In this document: positions 27,184 through 54,611 of the stretch, piece after piece
Position numbering within the stretch: the first letter of the stretch is position 1
How the letters are laid out: each line of letters begins with the position of its first letter
DNA from: Escherichia virus TH38
Length of the DNA stretch: 64,000 nucleotides
Reading direction: 5' to 3' (one strand)
Sequence record: MT446410.1
Translations under genes and position numbers: made by a program
The notes under the pieces: generated by a model
What the model saw: the letters and a program-made list of their open reading frames with translations, nothing else
Told to the model about the DNA's origin: nothing
The model's database searches: none

Positions 27184-27193
<10 letters not shown>
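26582..27193 (-). CDS. P-loop kinase (dNMP/nucleoside kinase-like)
   Basis: Walker A GPPGCGKDT near N-terminus; size ~200 aa. Confidence 0.55.
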
Positions 27194-28679
<1,486 letters not shown>

Positions 28680-28680
<1 letters not shown>

Positions 28681-33288: not shown

Positions 33289-35133
33289 TTAGTGTGTATG
33301 CATCCAGTTAAGTCCAATCTGACAATCAGATGCCAGAGGACATTCCATGTTCAGATACTCGCCAGCTTTCTTAACACAAAGCTCAGTGTGCTCTTTGAGT
33401 TTCTGTACATCATTACGGTTTACTGAGAATTGACCTTCATCGTGCATATCAATTACCTTAGCACAACGAACCTTATCTTTCTCAATCCACTTGTTAAGGA
33501 ACATCATAGCATATTTCATAACAACAGCACCAGCACATTGCAGGAGTGTGTTAAGGGCTTTATGAACCATAACCTTACCAGTGGCATCCCGTCTCATTGT
33601 AATCTTACGACCATCAACTCCAATCAAGTATCCTTGAGCAGCTTTCTCTGTCATACGATCAATGAGGATTGCAATACATGGGTTCTCTGCTAAGAAACGT
33701 GCTCGCATCACTGAACCTTCGTCAGCCCCACCACCTACAATTGAACCAAGCTTAGCATCGCCAGCACCGTAGTTGAATGCATAGATAAATGTCTTAGCGT
33801 TGTCACGAGTAGGAAGACCAGCAAGTTTCTGGTTGTGGGAGTGGATATCACCTTCAAGGAGAATATCACGATACATAATAGCAGAAGCTAAACCACGTTC
33901 TGCCAGAGCTTTCTTAGCTGGGTTGTTCTCTTCAATTGCTTCAGCAAGCATATCCCTACACTCTTTAATGAGGTAGTGAGCGAGCATACGAAGTTCCAGT
34001 CCAGAACCATCATACCCTAAGAATACTTCTTTACCAGCGGGTATGTAATATTTGTAAGCGCCTACAGGTTTGTCTTTCTTCCCCGGCTTACCTTTCTCGT
34101 AAATTACGTTAGTACCTTTTCGTATATAACAACCATCAGGAACAACGTTAGTAATAACGAAAGGACGAGAGTGATCACTGTCTGAGTTATAGTCAGACTC
34201 AAACAAACTGCGACACTCGTGACCAAACAGACCACGGGAGGGAATATTAACCACGATACGATGTTTGAATCGAAAAGTCGGCGTAGCGCAGCTGTTAGCT
34301 TCTGCCGAAAGTTTACCATCTTCGCGTTCCTTTGCTATGAGTCCACTGATAAGACCTAGCCTGTGAGCCGCCACAACGCGTCTCTTAAGCAAACTTCCGA
34401 CACTCCCTAGCTCACCCCCTAACCCTTCTTCAAGAGTCTCCTCGAGGTTTGTAGGAGCTGTAGGCCACTTGTTTGATGTGGCTAGTGCTTTCTTAATCTC
34501 ATCAAACGTTACAGGATTACGGCGATTAGGGTTTAATCCCAAACCAAATACGTAAGCCTTCATATAATTCTTAGTTTTAAACCTGAAATGCTTTTCTAAG
34601 AACTTCTTAATATCAGCGTCAACCATCTCGGCTGTCTGCTTCTGCTTAGCATTGCCTCGCATCCAAGCAGTATACCATGCTTGGTATGTTCCATACTTTC
34701 TCATATCTTTCTTAATTTCGAAAGTATTCCAAGGCTTCTTAGATACGTTAAACTCTGGAGGAAGAAAGCCCTCATCCATAAGAGCTTCTTTAACTCGTGC
34801 ATCTTTCGATGGGTCAAAGTCTACGTATTCGACACAGGTGAAAGCTCCACCAATATCTTCTCTCTTCAGCCCAACCCTATCACAATAGGATTGAGGCCAC
34901 TTCTGTAAAGCTCCAGACTTCTTAAATGGCTTCATATAAGTAGAGCCATCTAATCTCATCTTAGGTAAGAGAGGAATCAGTTCTTTGTCAATATTAACAA
35001 TAATCTCTTTAAGGAGGTGAACATACCACCGAGCATTTCTTCGGTTGAAACTCACTCCGTGCTTCGCTTGCTTAGAGATTATATCAGCGACAGTCATCTC
35101 TGTCAAAAATGGGAGAGCGTCCGGGTTGCTCAC
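33289..35133 (-). CDS. DNA polymerase, family A, polymerase domain only
   Basis: Motif A DGSGLELR, motif B KTFIYAFNYGAG, motif C VIDMHDEGQ; no 3'-5' exonuclease motifs in this ORF. Confidence 0.85.
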   Translation of the reverse strand: MSNPDALPFLTEMTVADIISKQAKHGVSFNRRNARWYVHLLKEIIVNIDKELIPLLPKMRLDGSTYMKPFKKSGALQKWPQSYCDRVGLKREDIGGAFTCVEYVDFDPSKDARVKEALMDEGFLPPEFNVSKKPWNTFEIKKDMRKYGTYQAWYTAWMRGNAKQKQTAEMVDADIKKFLEKHFRFKTKNYMKAYVFGLGLNPNRRNPVTFDEIKKALATSNKWPTAPTNLEETLEEGLGGELGSVGSLLKRRVVAAHRLGLISGLIAKEREDGKLSAEANSCATPTFRFKHRIVVNIPSRGLFGHECRSLFESDYNSDSDHSRPFVITNVVPDGCYIRKGTNVIYEKGKPGKKDKPVGAYKYYIPAGKEVFLGYDGSGLELRMLAHYLIKECRDMLAEAIEENNPAKKALAERGLASAIMYRDILLEGDIHSHNQKLAGLPTRDNAKTFIYAFNYGAGDAKLGSIVGGGADEGSVMRARFLAENPCIAILIDRMTEKAAQGYLIGVDGRKITMRRDATGKVMVHKALNTLLQCAGAVVMKYAMMFLNKWIEKDKVRCAKVIDMHDEGQFSVNRNDVQKLKEHTELCVKKAGEYLNMECPLASDCQIGLNWMHTH

Positions 35134-35575: not shown

Positions 35576-35860
35576 TCAACCTCTTGGGAATGGCATCAAA
35601 AATTCCACAGCAGATTTAATTTCATTATTGATTCTTGAATCACGATAAGAGATAAACTTACCTTTGCTATCACGTAACATCACATTAGTTCTGGCTGTTT
35701 TGTGAGGGAGTAATGTGACACTAGTTGGAATAGTATCAATCCCTACAGCGTATTTGTCAATAGTCTTACTTTCAGCCAACAGATAAGACCAAGTACGCGG
35801 TTTCTGCTCCGGGCGGTTAGGGTATGTGTCCCGAATTTGAACCATAGCTAACTTATTCAT
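35576..35860 (-). CDS. hypothetical protein, tandem paralog A
   Basis: Shares ARTNV.LR...GKFISY...A.E.L.PFP.G with next gene. Confidence 0.45.
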   Translation of the reverse strand: MNKLAMVQIRDTYPNRPEQKPRTWSYLLAESKTIDKYAVGIDTIPTSVTLLPHKTARTNVMLRDSKGKFISYRDSRINNEIKSAVEFLMPFPRG

Positions 35861-35861
35861 A

Positions 35862-36116
35862 TTAAACTCCTTTAGGGAATGGGATGAGATTTTCTACTGC
35901 AACACGGAAAGATTTTTCTACGTTCTTATTCTTATAAGAGATAAATTTTCCATCAGCTCCGCGAAGGAGTACGTTAGTGCGAGCTGTATTTGGGTTTTGT
36001 TGAATCATAGAACGAATGATGTTCTCTGAACCTCTATGCTTATTGGTGAATTTCCAACTGATAGTTTTACCGGTACGAGTTACATCAATAATATTTACAA
36101 TTTTTACAATAGACAT
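35862..36116 (-). CDS. hypothetical protein, tandem paralog B
   Basis: Paralog of 35576-35860. Confidence 0.45.
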   Translation of the reverse strand: MSIVKIVNIIDVTRTGKTISWKFTNKHRGSENIIRSMIQQNPNTARTNVLLRGADGKFISYKNKNVEKSFRVAVENLIPFPKGV

Positions 36117-36558: not shown

Positions 36559-37296
36559 TTAAGCTTTCTTTTCCATTGCTTTAACAATCGCCTTACAGAA
36601 ACCAGAACGAACAATATCATCTGATTCACCATCTACAATCTCAGCAAACTCATACAGATCATGTTCATCAATAAAGTTAGTAGCCCAAGTAAGACCACTC
36701 TCACGACCACGCATATCATGCTGGTTAGTATCACCCATGCAGAACAGCTGAGAGGTTTCTCCCAATCGAGTCATGATCGAGAAGGCTTCATCTTTAGTGG
36801 TGTTCTGGAATTCATCAACAATAACAATAGCATCATTGAAAGAACGACCACGGAGATATTCCAGAGGTACGAACTCAATGTTACTATTACCGAGCTGGCA
36901 TTCATAGAACCCCTTACCATATCGCTGAGTAATAACATCAATTATAGGCATCAGGTAAGGTTCAAACTTCTCACGCATTCCTCCCGGAAGTAACCCAAGA
37001 GAATTGCCCATGCCAACTGAAGGGCGACTCAGAATGATCTTCTGAATCTTACCGCTCTTCAGTGCATCAATAACTGTGGAAGTGATTACAAAGGTCTTAC
37101 CACAGCCCGCAGGAGCGTCTGTGAACACAACTTGTTTAGTCTTGATAGCATTGAGTAGCTCAGACTGAAACTGGTTCTGAGGGACTACAGGCTTTGCTAA
37201 AACCACCTCTTCATACTCTCGCTTACCCTTACGAGTAACAAGTGCTTCTCGACGAAGGTCTTTCCGTGATTCTTTCCGTGATTGACGACGACTCAT
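36559..37296 (-). CDS. phoH: PhoH-like ATPase
   Basis: Walker A DAPAGCGKTF plus LGLLPGGMREKFEPYLMP PhoH signature. Confidence 0.8.
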   Translation of the reverse strand: MSRRQSRKESRKDLRREALVTRKGKREYEEVVLAKPVVPQNQFQSELLNAIKTKQVVFTDAPAGCGKTFVITSTVIDALKSGKIQKIILSRPSVGMGNSLGLLPGGMREKFEPYLMPIIDVITQRYGKGFYECQLGNSNIEFVPLEYLRGRSFNDAIVIVDEFQNTTKDEAFSIMTRLGETSQLFCMGDTNQHDMRGRESGLTWATNFIDEHDLYEFAEIVDGESDDIVRSGFCKAIVKAMEKKA

Positions 37297-37478
37297 TTAC
37301 GCTCTCCAATTTCTTCGTAATGACACTCAGTAGTTAAACAGTCTTTACAGATTGCTGTATAAACCCTGACGTTAGTAAATCGTTTGTTCTTCCCTTTGGT
37401 TGGAGAGCCTTTGGCAAGCTCTCTGATAATCTTGTTACTTAAATGAAGGTTTGTTCCTTCACATTTAGAGCACTTCAT
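37293..37478 (-). CDS. small zinc-ribbon protein
   Basis: CSKCEG ... CKDC cysteine pairs. Confidence 0.4.
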   Translation of the reverse strand: MKCSKCEGTNLHLSNKIIRELAKGSPTKGKNKRFTNVRVYTAICKDCLTTECHYEEIGERK

Positions 37479-37794
37479 GGTTCATATCTTTATGAATCCT
37501 GTAAACAGCTGTCGCCATACAAGCAACAGCCTCATTGTGTGGGAGATGCATTCCTGTAGAACCATCCCAATCTTTGAACTCATTGTCAAAGACTCCGGTA
37601 GGCTCTGGATACAGAGCTTGCAGCTCCACTAGATCATTAGCAACTTGTTGCCATTTATCATCAGACCAGATAGGGTCATCCAACCAGTAATACAAATAGG
37701 AATGGATGATCAATTGCCTTCTATGCCGATTGATTACTTCAGCGGGACTTATTTCACTTCCATTTGAAGTCCTAAATGTATTACTGTCAATCAT
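37465..37794 (-). CDS. standalone protein resembling NAD-dependent DNA ligase domain Ia
   Basis: RQLIIHSYLYYWLDDPIWSDDKWQQVANDLVELQALYPE matches LigA N-terminal helix pattern (L..H...YY..D.P.ISD..YD.L..EL..LE..YPE). Confidence 0.4.
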   Translation of the reverse strand: MIDSNTFRTSNGSEISPAEVINRHRRQLIIHSYLYYWLDDPIWSDDKWQQVANDLVELQALYPEPTGVFDNEFKDWDGSTGMHLPHNEAVACMATAVYRIHKDMNHEVL

Positions 37795-37976
37795 TTCACA
37801 ACCTTAAATTTGAATGTTGTTGGGTGATAATAATGCAATCTATTGATAGTGTGTTTTGTTTCAAGATATATCCTGCAAGAGTGGCACATGACATGGGTCA
37901 GACCAGTTACAGGATTAGGTTTAAAGTTGGCGACAGTCTTCTCTTTATTACAGAAGCTACAGACTTTCTTTTCCAT
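37791..37976 (-). CDS. small zinc-ribbon protein
   Basis: Start at internal ATG (MEKKVCSFC...); CSFC ... CHSC. Confidence 0.35.
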   Translation of the reverse strand: MEKKVCSFCNKEKTVANFKPNPVTGLTHVMCHSCRIYLETKHTINRLHYYHPTTFKFKVVK

Positions 37977-38586: not shown

Positions 38587-39243
38587 TTAACTCTCCAAAG
38601 TTTTCTTCAGAGCTGCCCACGAGATTGGGTAGAGTTTAGCCATCTCTTCATCTAGAGATTTAGCAAACACTCGAACTTCATATTGAGCGTGAGAGGAGAG
38701 TCGCTGACGGCACAACTCAAACCAGCCATACAAAGAACCAGTCCACACCCACTCAGTGATCATCCCCTGAGGAAGAACAAATCGAGCTTGCTCTGGTGCA
38801 ATAAATTCAATCAACTTGTCATATGCTGCTAGAGAAGCTTCATATGCATCATTAATCAACATTAATGCTTCAGCTCGCTCTCCGTCGAGGAGTTGAATCC
38901 CTGAACCTGCATGGAGGTCCGAAGGTCTCGCAAAAATCTCTTTAGGGATGAAGACTTCAACTGCTCCATCTTTATACCGCCGGGACATTTCGTTCCACGA
39001 GAATCCAACCTGATGCTTGCCCAACTGTCTCGCAATTGCGATAGGTGCTTTGCATCGGAAACTGACTTGCGGGTGTCGGAATGGAGTACAGTGTTTTTCC
39101 CGTGCAAGGAAGTTGATAAGTTTTGTGTCTCTCTCATTTAAGTCGCCTTCTCGAACAACACCGAAAGATACTCTAGCTGCATTGACTACAGATTTGTCAC
39201 TACCCATTGCTTCAATCAGTGTTGCTTGTAGTTGTTCGTTCAA
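38587..39243 (-). CDS. thyX: flavin-dependent thymidylate synthase (ThyX-like)
   Basis: ThyX-like core (HCTPFRHPQVSF...ARQLGKHQVGFSWNEMSRRY); canonical RHR motif appears as KHQ. Confidence 0.65.
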   Translation of the reverse strand: MNEQLQATLIEAMGSDKSVVNAARVSFGVVREGDLNERDTKLINFLAREKHCTPFRHPQVSFRCKAPIAIARQLGKHQVGFSWNEMSRRYKDGAVEVFIPKEIFARPSDLHAGSGIQLLDGERAEALMLINDAYEASLAAYDKLIEFIAPEQARFVLPQGMITEWVWTGSLYGWFELCRQRLSSHAQYEVRVFAKSLDEEMAKLYPISWAALKKTLES

Positions 39244-39682
39244 TTAAAAGTTCCTTTTTTCGATTCATGTAAACTTGATGAGCTTCTTCGGCAGTTCCAT
39301 ACATACCTAGATGTATATCTACTTTATCAATACAAATAACAGCCCTATATCTGATAGTTCCTGATCTGTATTTGACAACCTTAACACCTTGAAGCCCTGT
39401 TTCCTTGTTTGATACTCTAGCCCCGAACTGGTTGTGGCAGTTTGTCGAGGTGTCCACCAATCTCAAGTTCTGTATTGAGTTGTTCTTCTTATTTCTATCG
39501 ATATGATCTATCTGAGAAGAAGGCCATTCTCCATAATAAAAGAACCATGCCACTTTATGAGCTTTGTGTACTTTCCCTTTAAACCGCAGGGTTATGTACT
39601 TACTTCGAGTTCCTCCTAATTTCTTACCTTTTCGAAAGAACTCTCCAGTCTCAGGGATATACTCTAAATCATCGATTACCAT
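39212..39682 (-). CDS. HNH homing endonuclease with AP2-like DNA-binding domain
   Basis: KAHKVAWFFYYGEWP...IDHIDRNKKNNSIQNLRL HNH_3 motif and AP2-like YRAVICID...LGMYGTAEEA; inserted between thyX and thioredoxin. Confidence 0.7.
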   Translation of the reverse strand: MVIDDLEYIPETGEFFRKGKKLGGTRSKYITLRFKGKVHKAHKVAWFFYYGEWPSSQIDHIDRNKKNNSIQNLRLVDTSTNCHNQFGARVSNKETGLQGVKVVKYRSGTIRYRAVICIDKVDIHLGMYGTAEEAHQVYMNRKKELLIERTTTSNTD

Positions 39683-39947
39683 TCAGAGCTGTATCTAAAA
39701 ATGCTTTCAGGTTTGCTTCAGTCTGCATACCAGAGAGGCTGTAGTGTGTACCGCTGTTACGGTCAGGCACAACGAAAGCAGGGATACTTCGTACACCATA
39801 CTTAACAGCTTGTTCACGACCATCACCTTCAAGGATGTTAATCTCTTCCACTTCTACATCAAACTCCTTAACAACCTTCTCAAAGGTAGGAGCCATTGCT
39901 TTACATGGAGCACACTGATCGCTATAAAACTTAATTACTTTAGACAT
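39669..39947 (-). CDS. thioredoxin
   Basis: CAPC active site in thioredoxin-fold context (FYSDQCAPCKAMAP). Confidence 0.85.
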   Translation of the reverse strand: MSKVIKFYSDQCAPCKAMAPTFEKVVKEFDVEVEEINILEGDGREQAVKYGVRSIPAFVVPDRNSGTHYSLSGMQTEANLKAFLDTALNGNR

Positions 39948-49003: not shown

Positions 49004-51034
49004 TTAACCTCTATTCAATGAACATTTAGGAGAATTACAATAAACTTGATTCATAGAACCAAGCGTACAACTTTCAGCATCGCGCCACGGAATCTGCTTA
49101 AAACACTCTGAGCAGTATCCGAGGGTTGACCACATGGCTTTGGTGAAGTCAGTGCTTCGGTTTCCGTCGAAGCTGACAACAGTTTTGCGGAGAGCTGTTC
49201 GTGATTCAGGAAACACACCTGCTTTCTCAGCAGGTTCCTCCTTTTTTGGCTTAGTTGAGATTGCAAAAATACTGTTGCTACGTTTCTCAACATAAGCATC
49301 AACAACATCCTCCAGAGTGATGCCTGTCTGTTTCGCTGAGGAAGGTAATACAGTCATACGACCGATCATTTCTTCAGTTACACGTAAAGCAAACTCAGGA
49401 CGACGGGCGTTTGTTGTATCTGTTGCTTTAATCCAGACATAACCATCTTTGATTGTAGCATTAGATACTTTCTTCTTTACTTCTACAGCGCAGGTTTTAC
49501 AGATATCTTCACCACGAAGACGACTAAGTTCATCATCGAACTCATTTTCTGTTTTAACTTCACCGCAGATTTCACAAACACCAATAGGAGTTTCCTCCTC
49601 CTCTTCCTCTTTAGGTTTAGTCAAACCTTCCAGACATTCAGGATGCCAATAGCACTGATATGCGAAGACTGCTTTAGGTGCATCCTTCCAATCAATGTGC
49701 TTGTCACAACCACCACAATCACCATGAGAGTGTGCTTCCCAGAATTTACGAGTGATAGTAACGCCATTCTTGTTGACGAAACTATCATTCATATCAAAAG
49801 GGATATCATCATCGAAGTCAGCAGTAGTTGACTCAGGCTCCTTTTTCTCCAGAGATGGGTCAACAAAACGACCTGCTGTGATCACTAAACGGACCATAGC
49901 ATTGACTTCGGAGATGCAGGATACTGTCCCACGGTAAACAATTTTAGGGTCTTTCAGTGCATCCTGATAAGCCTTAATGTCTACGTTATGAACATCACCT
50001 TCGATGTACTCTTGAGACTTCTCATCGTAGATATAGCCAATCATCTTACCACGAGAAGGAACAGCACCAGCAGTTGCATAAGGAACAAACTCATGCGGAG
50101 TGATTTCCACAGTCATATCGCGGCGAATATCAATGTTTCGATCGCTTGCGATTTTGTTTTGACTTACCACTGCGTTTCTTCGACGAACGTCTGCCGCTGT
50201 CACTCCCGGCTTCGTGTCGTAAGGATTGCTTGTACTGCTTTTTGAGGAACTTTGATAATTGCTTTGGCTGTAGTTGTTCGAGTAGTAATTGCCCCAACGA
50301 TTGATTACCGTAAAAACCGGAAGCTCGTGGGCGACCTCTTCAACTAGAGTCATACTGTTGTTTGACATGTCAAAGATATACTCTGTACCAACTTTACATT
50401 CAAAGTGCTCGTCAATTCGGTTTTTGTGAGACTTAGAACGCTTCAGAATCCACATCAACATATCTTCTTCAGAAGCACCAAACCAATCTCTGTTACAACG
50501 TGCGAGATGGAAAGGACGCTCTTCGTTACGGATGATATGAAGACGGTTGTCAGAAGCATCATGCCAGATTAAGGTGAAAGCACCATCCAGCTTTTGAATA
50601 GTCTCTGCTGCACCAATAGTGTTAATAGAGTGGCAGATGTTCTCACTGTCTACCTCGAAGTTTTTGCTGTCAGGTAACAGATCTTGGTCCATCAAGGTTC
50701 CGTTATGAACCAGAGTGATGTTACCATGTTGGAAAGGATGGGCGTTCTTGGCGTTAACTGCACCTTTCGTTGCATGACGGCTGTGACCAACAATCCATGA
50801 AGGCGCTACAGTGTACGCTGTTTCACCAGTGGTATGCTTCTTGTACTCATCTTGTAGGATGAATGCGAAAGAAGGAAGAGCTTCTTTATAAGTGAAGACT
50901 TCCTTAGTGCTTTTACGCTGACCAAAGATACCGGAGGAATGTTGTCCTCGGAATACTCCAGCATAAAAGAGTTGGTTGAATACGTCTAAATCAGTGCTTG
51001 ACAGATTACCGCCAGCTAATACGATGCCACAAAT
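49004..51034 (-). CDS. class-II glutamine amidotransferase (Ntn) fused to Cys-rich C-terminal domain; probable ATT start
   Basis: Frame open 113 codons upstream of listed TTG start to in-frame stop at 51038-40; translation begins (ATT)-CGIVLAGG...RGQHSSGIFG...GHSRHATKG...NAHPF...VHNGTL = GATase-II motif set with Cys directly after initiator; RBS AGGTGG 8 nt upstream of ATT. Confidence 0.6.
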   Translation of the reverse strand: MCGIVLAGGNLSSTDLDVFNQLFYAGVFRGQHSSGIFGQRKSTKEVFTYKEALPSFAFILQDEYKKHTTGETAYTVAPSWIVGHSRHATKGAVNAKNAHPFQHGNITLVHNGTLMDQDLLPDSKNFEVDSENICHSINTIGAAETIQKLDGAFTLIWHDASDNRLHIIRNEERPFHLARCNRDWFGASEEDMLMWILKRSKSHKNRIDEHFECKVGTEYIFDMSNNSMTLVEEVAHELPVFTVINRWGNYYSNNYSQSNYQSSSKSSTSNPYDTKPGVTAADVRRRNAVVSQNKIASDRNIDIRRDMTVEITPHEFVPYATAGAVPSRGKMIGYIYDEKSQEYIEGDVHNVDIKAYQDALKDPKIVYRGTVSCISEVNAMVRLVITAGRFVDPSLEKKEPESTTADFDDDIPFDMNDSFVNKNGVTITRKFWEAHSHGDCGGCDKHIDWKDAPKAVFAYQCYWHPECLEGLTKPKEEEEEETPIGVCEICGEVKTENEFDDELSRLRGEDICKTCAVEVKKKVSNATIKDGYVWIKATDTTNARRPEFALRVTEEMIGRMTVLPSSAKQTGITLEDVVDAYVEKRSNSIFAISTKPKKEEPAEKAGVFPESRTALRKTVVSFDGNRSTDFTKAMWSTLGYCSECFKQIPWRDAESCTLGSMNQVYCNSPKCSLNRG

Positions 51035-51113
51035 TTTCTAATCCACCTGAAGGGTAAACCCTTTCATCTAATTAACCTTTAAATTGTGCCCCTTTATCAG
51101 AGGCACCCATTGA

Positions 51114-52217
51114 TTACAGCGCTTGCTCTAACTGATTTTCCAGATGGTCTGGAATGTACCCTGTGATATTGCTATCACTGTGACCTGACTCACGTAGTAA
51201 GTCAAAAATAGCACGGATACGCTGTTCTGGAGCGTGTCTTACTTGAGATAGGTCTGCTGTACGAAGCATAACCAGAATCTCTTGGTACAAATTGTTAGCG
51301 TTCCCTCGGACATATCCAAGGAATCCGTAGAAGTCTGACATATGACGTAAGTCAACAAGAACATCTCCGTTGGAGTTAGTTCTACGTAAACGAATACGAC
51401 CAGACTGTTCTACTTCATGAGAACGGCAATACAAAACATCACGGGCCATACAATACCCTGAATGCAAATCAGATTCATCCAGATTGTAATCTAGAGGAAG
51501 ATAAGGAAGCATTGGGGCGAATCGTACAGTATTTAAATGCTCAACAAACTGATCGTTGCTCATATCTGCGTTATCTAAAGCCAGCTTCTTCAACATCAAG
51601 AATCGGTTAACCAGATTGAGAAGTTGACCACGTTTCCACTTAGGCTCGCTGATACGGAACTCAATCGAACCGTATTGGGCAAGTGGCAGAAGGTTCAGGG
51701 ATGTATACTTATCCCATGAACGAACCAGACGGTTGAAGAACTCTTCACCATCGTAGTTAAATGCGTCAGAGGCATTCATTACCTGTGCTTGTACCACTGC
51801 AAATGCAGGGCAGAAGTTGCTACGGTAACGATGGTAGCCTGAACACTTGAACAACATCTTTTCATAGAAGGTCCAAGCGAGAATGGTTTTCTTGAGGATA
51901 TTACTATCAGCATCCCTCATATCCATATGAACGTGAGTAGAGCAACGCCAAGTCCCCTCGGCGTGCGATTCAGCTACTGCTTCACTCAGGTTGTTGATAG
52001 CGTCTAACAACTCCTGTCCGTTGTAAGGTCGTGAACATACCATTTCACAACCGTTACGCAGGGAACCATCCTCTGTGCAATCCCACATATCTGCTTCGAT
52101 ATGTTCAGAACCTTCGAGTTCAAGTTCAATACCGACACCGCACTGAAGTGCAATTGAACTATGCGCCTCAGTTAAACGACCTTCTCGATATCCAAAAGTT
52201 TGCGCTACAGTTGTCAT
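51114..52217 (-). CDS. GS-like amidoligase (COOH-NH2 ligase family) candidate
   Basis: GVGIELELEG (GxExExE) and EDGSL motifs; 367 aa. Confidence 0.4.
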   Translation of the reverse strand: MTTVAQTFGYREGRLTEAHSSIALQCGVGIELELEGSEHIEADMWDCTEDGSLRNGCEMVCSRPYNGQELLDAINNLSEAVAESHAEGTWRCSTHVHMDMRDADSNILKKTILAWTFYEKMLFKCSGYHRYRSNFCPAFAVVQAQVMNASDAFNYDGEEFFNRLVRSWDKYTSLNLLPLAQYGSIEFRISEPKWKRGQLLNLVNRFLMLKKLALDNADMSNDQFVEHLNTVRFAPMLPYLPLDYNLDESDLHSGYCMARDVLYCRSHEVEQSGRIRLRRTNSNGDVLVDLRHMSDFYGFLGYVRGNANNLYQEILVMLRTADLSQVRHAPEQRIRAIFDLLRESGHSDSNITGYIPDHLENQLEQAL

Positions 52218-52831
52218 AACGAATCCACCAACGTAATATTATAATTGCTAAGGTTTTCAGAGATGTGATGAAAATGTTCCAGAAGTCGCATCGGTTGTTG
52301 ACCGTAAGAGTCACGAGGCGCTTCCAGATCTACCTGACCTACCAGTGCACCTTTATAATGCACTTTACCATCTGTAGGATTGATGTAAATATAACGAGTA
52401 ACCAATCCATCAAATTCAGGATTGAACAGACTGTAAACCATTTCACCAGAGATCGAACGACCAATCCCCGGAGCGTTTCGAATCTTGTTACCCATCAAAC
52501 CCTTCGCTCTCTGACGAACAGGATTGATATGAGTCCAGCTTACAGTGTTACCGTTATGGAACAGATAACCAACATCAGGTGATTCGAGAATCAAGGTTGG
52601 GTCGAACACTGGAATATTCATCGTAGTGTTTCGGAGATTCCCATGCTCGTTCTTGTACCACTGCTCTACAACAAAGTACAGAGCCTGTTCTGCTTCATGT
52701 GAGAAGTCATCGCTGCGGAAGTTACCGCTCTGCTCAACACCAATCACAAAACACGGAAGGTTGATATTACCTGCTCGTTTAGCAATCCATGTACCATTAT
52801 AGTAATGAGAAAAATCAGCTATTAAGCTCAC
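52214..52831 (-). CDS. hypothetical protein in ligase operon
   Basis: 205-aa ORF, start overlaps upstream stop. Confidence 0.4.
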   Translation of the reverse strand: MSLIADFSHYYNGTWIAKRAGNINLPCFVIGVEQSGNFRSDDFSHEAEQALYFVVEQWYKNEHGNLRNTTMNIPVFDPTLILESPDVGYLFHNGNTVSWTHINPVRQRAKGLMGNKIRNAPGIGRSISGEMVYSLFNPEFDGLVTRYIYINPTDGKVHYKGALVGQVDLEAPRDSYGQQPMRLLEHFHHISENLSNYNITLVDSL

Positions 52832-52840
52832 GATAACCTC

Positions 52841-53647
52841 TTATGCTACCTGAAGGAGTTTGATCTGCTGGTCCGCTTCTTTAACGTTGTTGCCGTTAAT
52901 GATTTCATGAAGCTTCTCAATCGGAAGGCGAGAGTGCAATGCCATCAGAGTGGACATATCACACTGCTGAACAACCTTGTCAACCTGATCGTAAACAAAC
53001 TTACGGTTTTCACGATCACTAATCCAGAAGTTAGACAGTGAACGGTATTCAATACCATAGTCTTTATAACGGATTGCAGAAGCTTTGCCGTACAGTTCTT
53101 TACGGCGAGTATCTTTATCCATAATAACTGCTGGGAGTGACAGGAAGTAGTCACACAGCACACCCAGCATCATCTGAGTTTGCAAAGTGATATCCAAAGC
53201 ACCAACTACGCCAAGATGTACGTGACCACCGGCAGTACGAAGCCCTTTATTCTGAGAAGTCGGGGATGGATTCTTCTGACCAGTGAAAGCGTTAAAATCA
53301 GGAGTGCATCCGAAGATGAACGCTGATTCATTGAAAGTCTTCATCTCTTCTTCAGTGAAGATGTGAGAGCTAACACCCGGAGCTGTTTCCATGTCCAGTT
53401 TGTTCAGGACATTGTTGGTGAGATCGATACCACGTTGCATGTTATCGTTAAACGCTTCAAAACCGCTCTGTGGGTCAATATCAAACTCAGCCAGTACATT
53501 GTCCTCTTGAAGACGAACATCCTTAGCCAGAGTGATCTTATCATCCTTAGAACAACCTAACAGACCAGCTACAGAGGTGATAATACCATTACTGGTACGA
53601 ACAAACATTTCAGGGTCAGAGCCGATAAGGAATTTGCGCTTAGTCAT
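52841..53647 (-). CDS. possible second amidoligase-like protein
   Basis: N-terminal FLIGSDPEMF resembles G-x-E-x-E strand; otherwise unassigned. Confidence 0.3.
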   Translation of the reverse strand: MTKRKFLIGSDPEMFVRTSNGIITSVAGLLGCSKDDKITLAKDVRLQEDNVLAEFDIDPQSGFEAFNDNMQRGIDLTNNVLNKLDMETAPGVSSHIFTEEEMKTFNESAFIFGCTPDFNAFTGQKNPSPTSQNKGLRTAGGHVHLGVVGALDITLQTQMMLGVLCDYFLSLPAVIMDKDTRRKELYGKASAIRYKDYGIEYRSLSNFWISDRENRKFVYDQVDKVVQQCDMSTLMALHSRLPIEKLHEIINGNNVKEADQQIKLLQVA

Positions 53648-54611
53648 TGTAATACTCCACTAGTTCAGAAAAGAGAGATGAGATTGTGTTACCAACTTCT
53701 TCAAGAGTAAGACCGGAATCTGCTCCAGTTCTTTGAATCAGTCGGGCTGTAAAGTTTTGTACTGTAATGTTTCCCAACTTGTCGTCTATTGCTTCACGTT
53801 TGTGACCATAACAGTTGGACCAGAGTCTTAACCACTCTGACATTGTTTCATACTCGTCCGGGTCTTGATCTTTAGCACGAGCAAATCTTCGTAAGGCATC
53901 TTGGTTATGGTTACGAACATAACCGTTCTCGTTGTCGCCAACACCGAAGGGGTTTTGAACCCATACTTGCTTCGTGTATTCATCAGAGTCTACAACCAAA
54001 GGAAGGAATGCTGCTGCTGACATATTGTTGTTAATAACAATAGAGGTGCTCTCACTACTCCCATTGGCTCTTCCTCGTTGAGACCATCCACCGAAGAAGT
54101 CACGACCCAACCCAGCTAACACTAGAGCGATGCCGATGCGTTTACGCTTCAGCCACTCTTCCCTGTCTTCAATTCCTTCTGCTAGGAAATCCATTCCACG
54201 ATATTGCCCTTCCAGAATACTACGAAAGAGCATAAGTCCTGTGAAGATCTGATCTGCTGGATGCTCACGAAGGTTGACAGCAACACTATTCGCTGAAGTG
54301 ATCGTAAATACGTTACGATAGCAAGACATAGAGTTCATAACGTCTGCTGTTTCAACCAACCTCTCTTCAATATCAGATGTATCATAACCGTGAAAAGAGT
54401 GAGTCCAGTAATTCAACATCTCCAGCTGCAAGTTGATATCACGGTTGAAGCGTCTCCAACGCCCATCTTCCGAGATAACTTCACCATTAATGTCATTTAC
54501 ACACTGGCCTTGCATGTAGTTGTGGATACCGAAGCACCCACGACCTAAGAACTTCTGTTCCCCTAAATCCTGTTGAAGATTAAGAGGTACGATCGTTGTG
54601 GAGATTGACAT
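53640..54611 (-). CDS. hypothetical protein in ligase operon
   Basis: 323-aa ORF. Confidence 0.4.
   Translation of the reverse strand: MSISTTIVPLNLQQDLGEQKFLGRGCFGIHNYMQGQCVNDINGEVISEDGRWRRFNRDINLQLEMLNYWTHSFHGYDTSDIEERLVETADVMNSMSCYRNVFTITSANSVAVNLREHPADQIFTGLMLFRSILEGQYRGMDFLAEGIEDREEWLKRKRIGIALVLAGLGRDFFGGWSQRGRANGSSESTSIVINNNMSAAAFLPLVVDSDEYTKQVWVQNPFGVGDNENGYVRNHNQDALRRFARAKDQDPDEYETMSEWLRLWSNCYGHKREAIDDKLGNITVQNFTARLIQRTGADSGLTLEEVGNTISSLFSELVEYYND

Follow-up and report, generated by a model that had tools for sequence, protein, structure and literature searches.

In the 64,000-nucleotide stretch of Escherichia virus TH38 analysed here (sequence record MT446410.1; hereafter the window), a 109-residue open reading frame (ORF) bounded by stops lies at 37465-37794 on the minus strand. 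As judged from its sequence and predicted fold, its product is a non-catalytic solo Nlig-Ia protein, which combines a helical hairpin homologous to domain Ia of the NAD-dependent DNA ligase LigA with a loop and a helix specific to its own family. Solo phage Nlig-Ia is already known, both as Pfam family PF22745 and from a 2022 paper by Iyer, Burroughs, Anantharaman and Aravind (Viruses 14:1977; PMC9503650). A second conserved motif, a replication-module context and clamp-type terminal peptides, which we describe below, appear to be new relative to the excerpts of that paper used here.

The Nlig-Ia model (PF22745, 'DNA ligase-like N-terminal NAD+-binding domain') matches residues 16-102 of 109 over model positions 1-90 of 92, with E=2.1e-35 and 121.7 bits against a cutoff of 27, and is the sole Pfam family above cutoff in the protein; phrog_6466 matches it with E=2e-43. 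An earlier note, made from the letters of this DNA, had placed a standalone ORF here with exact length and position, had likened it to LigA domain Ia, and had proposed a profile search against the LigA N-terminal domain as the check that could refute the likeness. That search returned a significant match (PF22745, E as above), and the likeness is borne out by phrog_6466, by the comparison with LigA itself and by fold search. The minus strand, the family-specific nature of residues 62-106 and the existence of the family in Pfam were absent from the note. The segment RQLIIHSYLYYWLDDPIWSDDKWQQVANDLVELQALYPE corresponds to residues 26-64.

Single-sequence similarity to solved LigA structures is marginal (E~0.05), and in a search of all PDB sequences a family profile of 58 members picks up residues 2-53 of E. 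coli LigA (E=4e-4 to 7e-4); these values point to only a remote relationship between solo Ia and LigA. In the confident AlphaFold2 model computed with the alignment (pLDDT 90.5, pTM 0.83), two helices (residues 17-38 and 45-61) are followed by a long loop that spans 62-87 and by a third helix over 88-106. When this model was searched against the PDB with Foldseek, LigA structures made up essentially all of the top ~24 matches (probability 0.96-1.0), and superposition on several of them, among them 1dgs, 5tt5 and 7k72, gave 0.7-1.3 Å over ~47 residues. The hairpin alone aligns to LigA in the fold search, and the C-terminal half is without a LigA counterpart there. The predicted correspondence to domain Ia is limited to residues ~17-61, and residues 62-106 form a loop and helix specific to the family. 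A sub-threshold Pfam match to Imm41 (polymorphic-toxin immunity protein 41) covers residues 32-67 (E=3e-4, 21.2 bits, cutoff 26.9); Imm41 may be distantly related to the Ia fold, or the match may be a coincidence of helical hairpins.

The gene and its parts are laid out as follows.

37465-37794, minus strand: standalone Nlig-Ia coding sequence, 109 residues, identified as an ORF matched by PF22745 (E=2.1e-35) and phrog_6466 (E=2e-43), with dN/dS 0.10.
37747-37794, minus strand: N-terminal peptide, residues 1-16 (MIDSNTFRTSNGSEIS), at the position of the LF/FF clamp-binding-like peptides of relatives; Phe7 is conserved in the Kuravirus clade, and the motif is not canonical.
37612-37746, minus strand: domain-Ia-like helical hairpin, residues 17-61 (helices 17-38 and 45-61), the sole part that superposes on LigA.
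37648-37692, minus strand: predicted nicotinamide-nucleotide site, residues Y35, Y36, D45, W48 and Q49, from the register to E. coli LigA and invariance in 58 members.
37540-37578, minus strand: family-specific motif F73-x-D-W76-x-G78-x-T80-G81-x-H83-L84-P85 in loop 62-87, made of invariant columns to which no LigA residues align.
37477-37533, minus strand: family-specific C-terminal helix, residues 88-106, from the AlphaFold2 model; PF22745 reaches residue 102, and the helix lies outside every LigA alignment.

The 15 kb around the gene are 96-97.6% identical to Escherichia phages EC.W2-6, SU10 and relatives, and by this sequence identity the source phage is a Kuravirus/phiEco32-like podovirus. 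The SU10 ortholog is gp059, and ECBP2_0056 is a syntenic ortholog that adjoins PhoH and is 77% identical to the window protein. Our exhaustive profile search retrieved 586 clusters at 50% identity (E<=1e-10), nearly all of 90-150 residues, and a homolog is found in 252 phage records, which include Escherichia, Arthrobacter, Clostridium, Enterococcus and Rhodococcus phages as well as Erwinia and Salmonella jumbo phages. Because dN/dS against ECBP2_0056 is 0.10 (dN 0.18, dS 1.74) and the family is so widely represented in phage records and clusters, the ORF is a real gene under strong purifying selection.

In a search of one genome per species across ~185,000 bacteria and archaea, seven loci were found, a scarcity that agrees with the published view of the solo form as essentially viral. 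In the excerpts of the 2022 paper used here, solo Nlig-Ia is reported from 81 phages, with ECBP2_0056 as an example; 80 of the 81 lack a ligase catalytic module, the residues that bind the ligand are conserved, and the proteins are proposed to be likely NAD+ sensors, or NAD+ shields against NADase effectors (PMC9503650). We found no experimental work on Nlig-Ia, PF22745 or ECBP2_0056 in the literature, just this computational paper, and the phiEco32 temporal-class literature held nothing specific to the Ia gene. All functional readings of a family of more than 580 diverged clusters are thus computational, and the E. coli Kuraviruses, which include Bas87-92 of the BASEL collection, offer a tractable system for it. 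None of ten longer family members carries a second Pfam domain. In two of the family's proteins, P0182 (290 residues) and P0207 (315 residues), Nlig-Ia is fused to a common C-terminal domain of ~200 residues without a Pfam match, and P0226 (321 residues) has two Nlig-Ia domains in tandem.

The profile alignment sets H31-S-Y-L-Y35-Y36 of the solo protein on H18-E-Y-L-Y22-H23 of E. coli LigA, D45 on LigA D32, W48 on LigA Y35 and Q49 on LigA D36. Y35, Y36, D45, W48 and Q49 are invariant in the 58-member family alignment. Their LigA partners (Y22, H23, D32, Y35 and D36) are presumably the domain-Ia residues that Sriskanda and Shuman found to be required in 2002. In LigA, domain Ia orients the nicotinamide mononucleotide (NMN) leaving group, a tyrosine pair stacks on the nicotinamide, and conserved domain-Ia residues are required, the last point being made in a review that cites Sriskanda & Shuman 2002 (PMC7470946). 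The W48-Q49 pair, which relative to LigA amounts to two conservative replacements (Y to W and D to Q), is Y-D or F-D in the distant Arthrobacter, Clostridium and Enterococcus phage clades. The LigA pair is Y-D; the site therefore evolves under LigA-like constraints. We infer from these positions that the solo protein binds NAD+ or NMN, which would be held by stacking on Y35 and W48 and by hydrogen bonds from D45 and Q49.

The second block, F73-x-D-W76-x-G78-x-T80-G81-x-H83-L84-P85, is conserved as strongly as the Ia signature in the family alignment. A relaxed form, F.[DS][FW]...[ST]TG.[HD][LF]P, recurs in the homologs of Arthrobacter, Clostridium, Enterococcus and Erwinia phages, the most distant of those in cultured phages. 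This motif (F.DW.G.TG.HLP) has no LigA counterpart in the fold-search and profile alignments. The invariant GSTG-H-L-P loop may complete the pocket, for example through a phosphate contact, in the place of what the NTase domain supplies in LigA.

No catalytic core accompanies the module. A Pfam scan of 30 window ORFs, which include all minus-strand ORFs of at least 150 residues, detected no DNA-ligase adenylation, OB, HhH, BRCT or ATP-dependent ligase domain. With full-length E. coli LigA (MG1655) as query, tblastn against the six-frame window matched the Ia ORF alone, over LigA residues 12-51, and apart from that ORF nothing in the window fell below E~1; the OB, Zn-finger, HhH and BRCT domains of LigA are thus missing from the ORF and, in six frames, from the window. 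LigA residues 127-190 gave a non-significant match (E 0.95) inside the COOH-NH2 ligase ORF. The complete SU10 annotation lists no other ligase, the absence of an ATP-dependent enzyme being read from Pfam and annotation. Within the 109 residues, similarity to LigA ends at about LigA residue 53, and an adenylation domain with the motif I lysine is absent, in keeping with the earlier note, which had seen none; the short ORF and the six-frame match confined to LigA residues 12-51 say the same. Scores with the NCBIfam LigA models are 15.9 bits (cutoff 369) and 13.6 bits (cutoff 444), and NCBIfam yielded these sub-threshold matches only, with no family model for solo Nlig-Ia.

GenBank labels for the ortholog are inconsistent ('DNA ligase', 'NAD-dependent DNA ligase' and 'hypothetical protein'; SU10 gp059 bears the first), and the YF01 genome paper names it as the phage's NAD-dependent DNA ligase (PMC9965538). 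Because every catalytic domain is lacking, the ligase labels in GenBank and in that paper are misnomers. Phages so annotated are better regarded as ligase-less and dependent on host LigA, which the phage needs for lagging-strand joining because it has no ligase of its own. The same labels, attached in many records to a mere 109 residues, could suggest a decayed remnant of a phage ligase or an annotation artefact without function. We give this explanation almost no credence, since the similarity to LigA is weak (profile E~1e-4), as befits an old and independent family, and we rejected a remnant or pseudogene on the dN/dS of 0.10, the 586 diverged clusters of similar small size and the family's own invariant C-terminal motif.

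The Ia gene sits in a minus-strand block of replication and nucleotide-metabolism genes. From the family-A DNA polymerase (33289-35133) the block runs through small ORFs, PhoH (36559-37296) and a zinc-ribbon ORF to the Ia gene; a second zinc-ribbon ORF, ThyX, an HNH endonuclease, thioredoxin and a ferritin/Dps-like protein follow, and then dCTP deaminase, a CCA-adding-like nucleotidyltransferase, a polymerase exonuclease subunit and a primase-helicase. The two flanking ORFs, given for context only, are as follows.

37293-37478, minus strand: downstream 61-residue CxxC...CxxC zinc-ribbon ORF, with a 14-nt overlap with the Ia gene; phrog_14369, of unknown function.
37791-37976, minus strand: upstream 61-residue zinc-ribbon ORF, whose stop overlaps the Ia start (ATGA); phrog_15951 matches residues 22-82 of the 82-residue ORF.

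The start of the Ia gene thus overlaps the stop of the upstream ORF, and its final 14 nt lie within the beginning of the downstream one; such overlapping ends are typical of a tightly packed phage operon. The true start of the upstream ORF is probably Met22 of the mechanically delimited 82-residue frame, and its 186-nt SU10 counterpart, gp060, supports the shorter version.

Comparable surroundings recur in relatives. The Ia gene lies directly after DNA polymerase I in Arthrobacter phage DrManhattan, between NrdD and NrdG/primase in Clostridium phage CS06, between thymidylate kinase and thymidylate synthase in Erwinia jumbo phage Phobos, and near RNase H, PhoH, gp59 and gp32 on a T4-like metagenomic contig. 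Replication or nucleotide-metabolism modules house the gene in four annotated phage groups, in the window Kuravirus and on the T4-like contig. No fixed partner gene is common to the contexts of family members P0037, P0019, P0069 and P0077. On a Kuravirus-like contig (L014 6001-6504, protein P0010), Ia carries a CxxC...CxxC zinc ribbon as a C-terminal fusion and stands directly after ThyX, without PhoH. We considered P0010 as a Rosetta-stone link between Ia and the zinc-ribbon ORFs that flank it in the window and rejected it, as the P0010 ribbon has no detectable similarity to either ORF. In Janthinobacterium sp. CG3 (L017 3210-4529), a solo Ia gene whose product ends in QGSLF is followed by an ORF that overlaps it by 124 nt and carries the ParA-like Walker-A motif KGGVGKTT. 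This locus suggests a plasmid-prophage or other mobile element and not a chromosomal gene, with ParA assigned by motif alone.

Two further genes of the window touch on NAD and ADP-ribose. A 146-residue Macro-domain protein is encoded at 28240-28680 on the minus strand (PF01661, E=2.8e-9; ortholog of SU10 gp033, 'Appr-1-p processing'); its gene adjoins the phage sigma factor ~9 kb from the Ia gene and is a second member of the NAD/ADP-ribose network. At 27184-27576, also on the minus strand, a 130-residue ORF gives a weak match to the SLOG family YAcAr (PF10686, E=7e-5; 23 bits, where the cutoff is 28.2); SLOG is named in the excerpted text of the 2022 paper as a further candidate NAD/ADP-ribose sensor domain in viruses (PMC9503650).

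These genes bear on the published proposal that solo Nlig-Ia is a free NAD+ sensor or shield, which would act independently of any ligase, either signalling that host NADases such as TIR and SIR2 effectors have been deployed or protecting an NAD+ pool from them. The proposal was made for the family as a whole with an example from the Kuravirus group, as the excerpts of that paper have it (PMC9503650), and it fits the conserved ligand-contacting residues, the lack of a phage ligase, the Macro domain (E=3e-9) and weak SLOG match in the same phage, both in the NAD/ADP-ribose network, and the major part that NAD+ depletion plays in anti-phage defence, against which many phage countermeasures are known. 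However, it is difficult to see how a protein of 109 residues could act as a sensor with neither an output domain nor a conserved partner gene, and a stoichiometric binder would probably make a poor shield for a millimolar metabolite. Nor does the proposal explain why the gene occupies replication modules across unrelated phages or why about one third of the family carries clamp-type termini, and the Macro and SLOG genes lie ~9 kb from the Ia gene. We regard a free sensor or shield as possible, if on balance unlikely. Resynthesis of NAD+ by NARP1/2/3-type pathways was rejected, since the Adps/Namat, Nampt/Nmnat and PnuC/NadR-like Pfam domains by which these pathways are defined were not found in the 30 window ORFs.

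The terminal peptides offer a different line of evidence. Longer family members have Pro/Ala-rich tails that terminate exactly in QMSLF, QASLF, QMALF, QLSLF and similar sequences. Terminal motifs were counted in 205 core-containing sequences and compared with 1000 shuffles of the same tails, with the following outcome; the counts are not phylogenetically independent.

Sequence ending in Q..[LIM]F: observed in 24 of 205, expected 0.04, shuffle maximum 1.
[LM]F within the last three residues: observed in 33 of 205, expected 1.7, shuffle maximum 6.
[LMF]F within the first twelve residues: observed in 34 of 205, expected 14.2, shuffle maximum 27.

The N-terminal enrichment is modest, and about one third of the family has a clamp-binding-like peptide at a terminus. 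The C-terminal Q..[LIM]F tails fit the published beta-clamp consensus QL(S/D)LF / QxxL(x)F (PMC4976356). Contigs with QxxLF-type tails are ~63% GC, and the copies in Oxalobacteraceae genomes have such ends as well (QGSLF in Janthinobacterium, QMALF in Massilia). A separate clade starts with (S/T)L(D/E)xFF(D/E)(D/E), for example MSATLDSFFDEP, TLDSFFDE and SLESFFDD, and one member with the N-terminal (S/T)L(D/E)xFF motif is found in a T4-like phage. In sequence this N-terminal (S/T)L(D/E)xFF(D/E) peptide is similar to LDFLF, through which T4 polymerase and T4 ligase bind gp45 (PMC6212786). The beta clamp has LigA among its own partners (PMC4976356; also reference 48 of PMC4549789, as quoted in the part of that paper used here). 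Clamps go unmentioned in the 2022 paper on solo Nlig-Ia (PMC9503650). In neighbour-joining order, the motif-bearing sequences fall into several (at least three) separated groups, which suggests that terminal motifs may have been acquired repeatedly, on a tree of ~80 residues that is weak. No cultured phages with the clamp-motif subtypes were found, and the best matches remain Kuraviruses. Within the window clade, Phe7 alone is conserved among N-termini (MIDSNTF, MINDNTF, MLRPNLF, MITSELF, MVTDQTF).

Our preferred reading, held tentatively, is that the solo Ia protein acts in trans at the phage replication fork, where nicotinamide-nucleotide binding would be coupled to the nick sealing that a ligase-less phage obtains from host LigA. 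It would act by supporting or gating LigA adenylation and not as a free cytoplasmic NAD+ buffer. We rank this replisome- and LigA-linked role above the free sensor or shield because of the clamp-type peptides, the genomic context and the reported anticorrelation with phage ligases, all three of which a module that stood in for a ligase function, or acted on one, would explain more readily. Both functional ideas of the earlier note, NAD+ sensing and modulation of host LigA, thus stay alive as hypotheses drawn from sequence; the first coincides with the proposal in the excerpted 2022 text (PMC9503650), and the second gains indirect support from the replication context and the clamp-type peptides of relatives.

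A more specific form of the idea, which we consider doubtful, is that solo Nlig-Ia proteins are replisome-associated trans cofactor modules that bind NAD+ or NMN and through which ligase-less phages control host LigA, for instance by stimulating or gating the adenylation of the enzyme at clamp-marked nicks, above all where NAD+ runs short. The tether would differ among lineages, a C-terminal QxxLF serving for the host beta clamp and an N-terminal LDxFF for a phage gp45-type clamp. If true, this would be the first ligase cofactor-binding domain to work as a separate virus-encoded subunit. The replisome- and LigA-linked role, if it holds, would directly connect NAD+-depletion immunity to the sealing of Okazaki fragments. 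The clamp-type termini provide a concrete and inexpensive discriminator between that role and a free NAD+ sensor or shield.

The same peptides could also be read as the mark of an inhibitor of host replication or repair. As a dominant-negative decoy, solo Ia might dock on the LigA NTase domain where the enzyme's own Ia belongs, or in motif-bearing relatives fill the clamp cleft, and so block host nick sealing for shut-off. In LigA, the domain to which the module is homologous has to close over the NTase site, and relatives have peptides of clamp-binding type. A precedent may exist, in that Belley and colleagues reportedly described in 2006 small Staphylococcus phage polypeptides that compete for the sliding clamp and arrest host replication. 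The phage is ligase-less, however, so blocking LigA would stop its own lagging-strand joining, and a steric decoy has no need for strict conservation of the NMN-contacting residues; we judge such an inhibitor improbable.

More improbable by far is a reader of NAD caps, in which the module would bind the exposed NMN of NAD-capped RNA, possible NAD-initiated primers included, at the fork. Domain Ia recognises the NMN half of NAD+, presumably the very moiety that a NAD cap exposes, and the replication context together with clamp peptides would put the module near primers. Julius et al. reportedly described in 2020 that primase can initiate with NADH or FAD. Yet this reader is more elaborate than the alternatives, and neither an RNA-binding surface nor a partner was identified for it.

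Several points weigh against the replisome- and LigA-linked role that we prefer. Clamp tethering cannot be universal, as about two thirds of the family are without the peptides, and the motif counts come from related sequences. Neither end of the window protein carries a canonical clamp-binding motif (N-terminus MIDSNTFRT, C-terminus KDMNHEVL), and AlphaFold2 predicts its N-terminal segment (residues 1-16) to be ordered, with pLDDT ~85. The Kuravirus replisome is T7-like, with a family-A polymerase, a primase-helicase and its own thioredoxin, and no sliding-clamp gene was detected in the window. Host LigA has its own Ia domain, and what another copy in trans would add is hard to see. Some other metagenomic contexts are clusters of small ORFs of unknown function and are uninformative, and the Macro domain and weak SLOG match of the same phage fit the rival reading of a conflict over NAD and ADP-ribose. 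NAD+ binding and activity are, for all family members, read from sequence.

Several other genes of the window deserve mention. Between ThyX and thioredoxin stands the HNH endonuclease gene (39212-39682, minus strand; PF13392, E=1.6e-13), with an overlap at the 5' end of the ThyX ORF; because ThyX and thioredoxin are adjacent in SU10, it is a mobile-endonuclease insertion of ~410 nt that is particular to this phage lineage. Two genes encode the family-A DNA polymerase, with the polymerase at 33289-35133 and a separate 3'-5' exonuclease at 43676-44233, ~8.5 kb apart and both on the minus strand, and the thioredoxin encoded at 39669-39947 (minus strand) may, by analogy, be a T7-style processivity factor. 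At 35576-35860 and 35862-36116, each of two adjacent small minus-strand ORFs (94 and 84 residues) has a phrog_6814 match (E~1e-37 to 1e-39); the pair represents a tandemly duplicated gene of unknown function, and its members share the pattern '...ARTNV(M/L)LR...GKFISY...PFP(R/K)G'. The minus-strand cluster at 46237-54611, with genes for GGACT (gamma-glutamyl cyclotransferase), an ATP-grasp-like protein, GATase, Amidoligase_2 and the phiEco32-type COOH-NH2 ligase, is the known phiEco32 module for peptide or metabolite modification.

Set beside known systems, the family stands between three points of reference. Among clamp-tethered factors, Pol II, Pol IV and LigA carry QL[S/D]LF, and T4 gp43 and T4 ligase carry LDFLF; the termini of the relatives match these consensus forms, whereas the window protein is without a canonical motif, and clamp binding in the family is a candidate property. 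Domain Ia of LigA (E. coli 5tt5/2owo, T. filiformis 1dgs) has the two-helix hairpin in common with the solo protein, which in contrast is unattached to NTase, OB, Zn, HhH or BRCT domains, replaces Y35 by W and D36 by Q in the clade of the window protein, and has a 26-residue loop with an invariant motif and an extra helix where LigA continues after Ia with its 'SPTQRVG' segment. Compared with the published solo Nlig-Ia proteins, as far as they are described in the excerpts used here, the window protein is essentially the same gene: small, solo, encoded by a ligase-less phage and conserved in its ligand residues.

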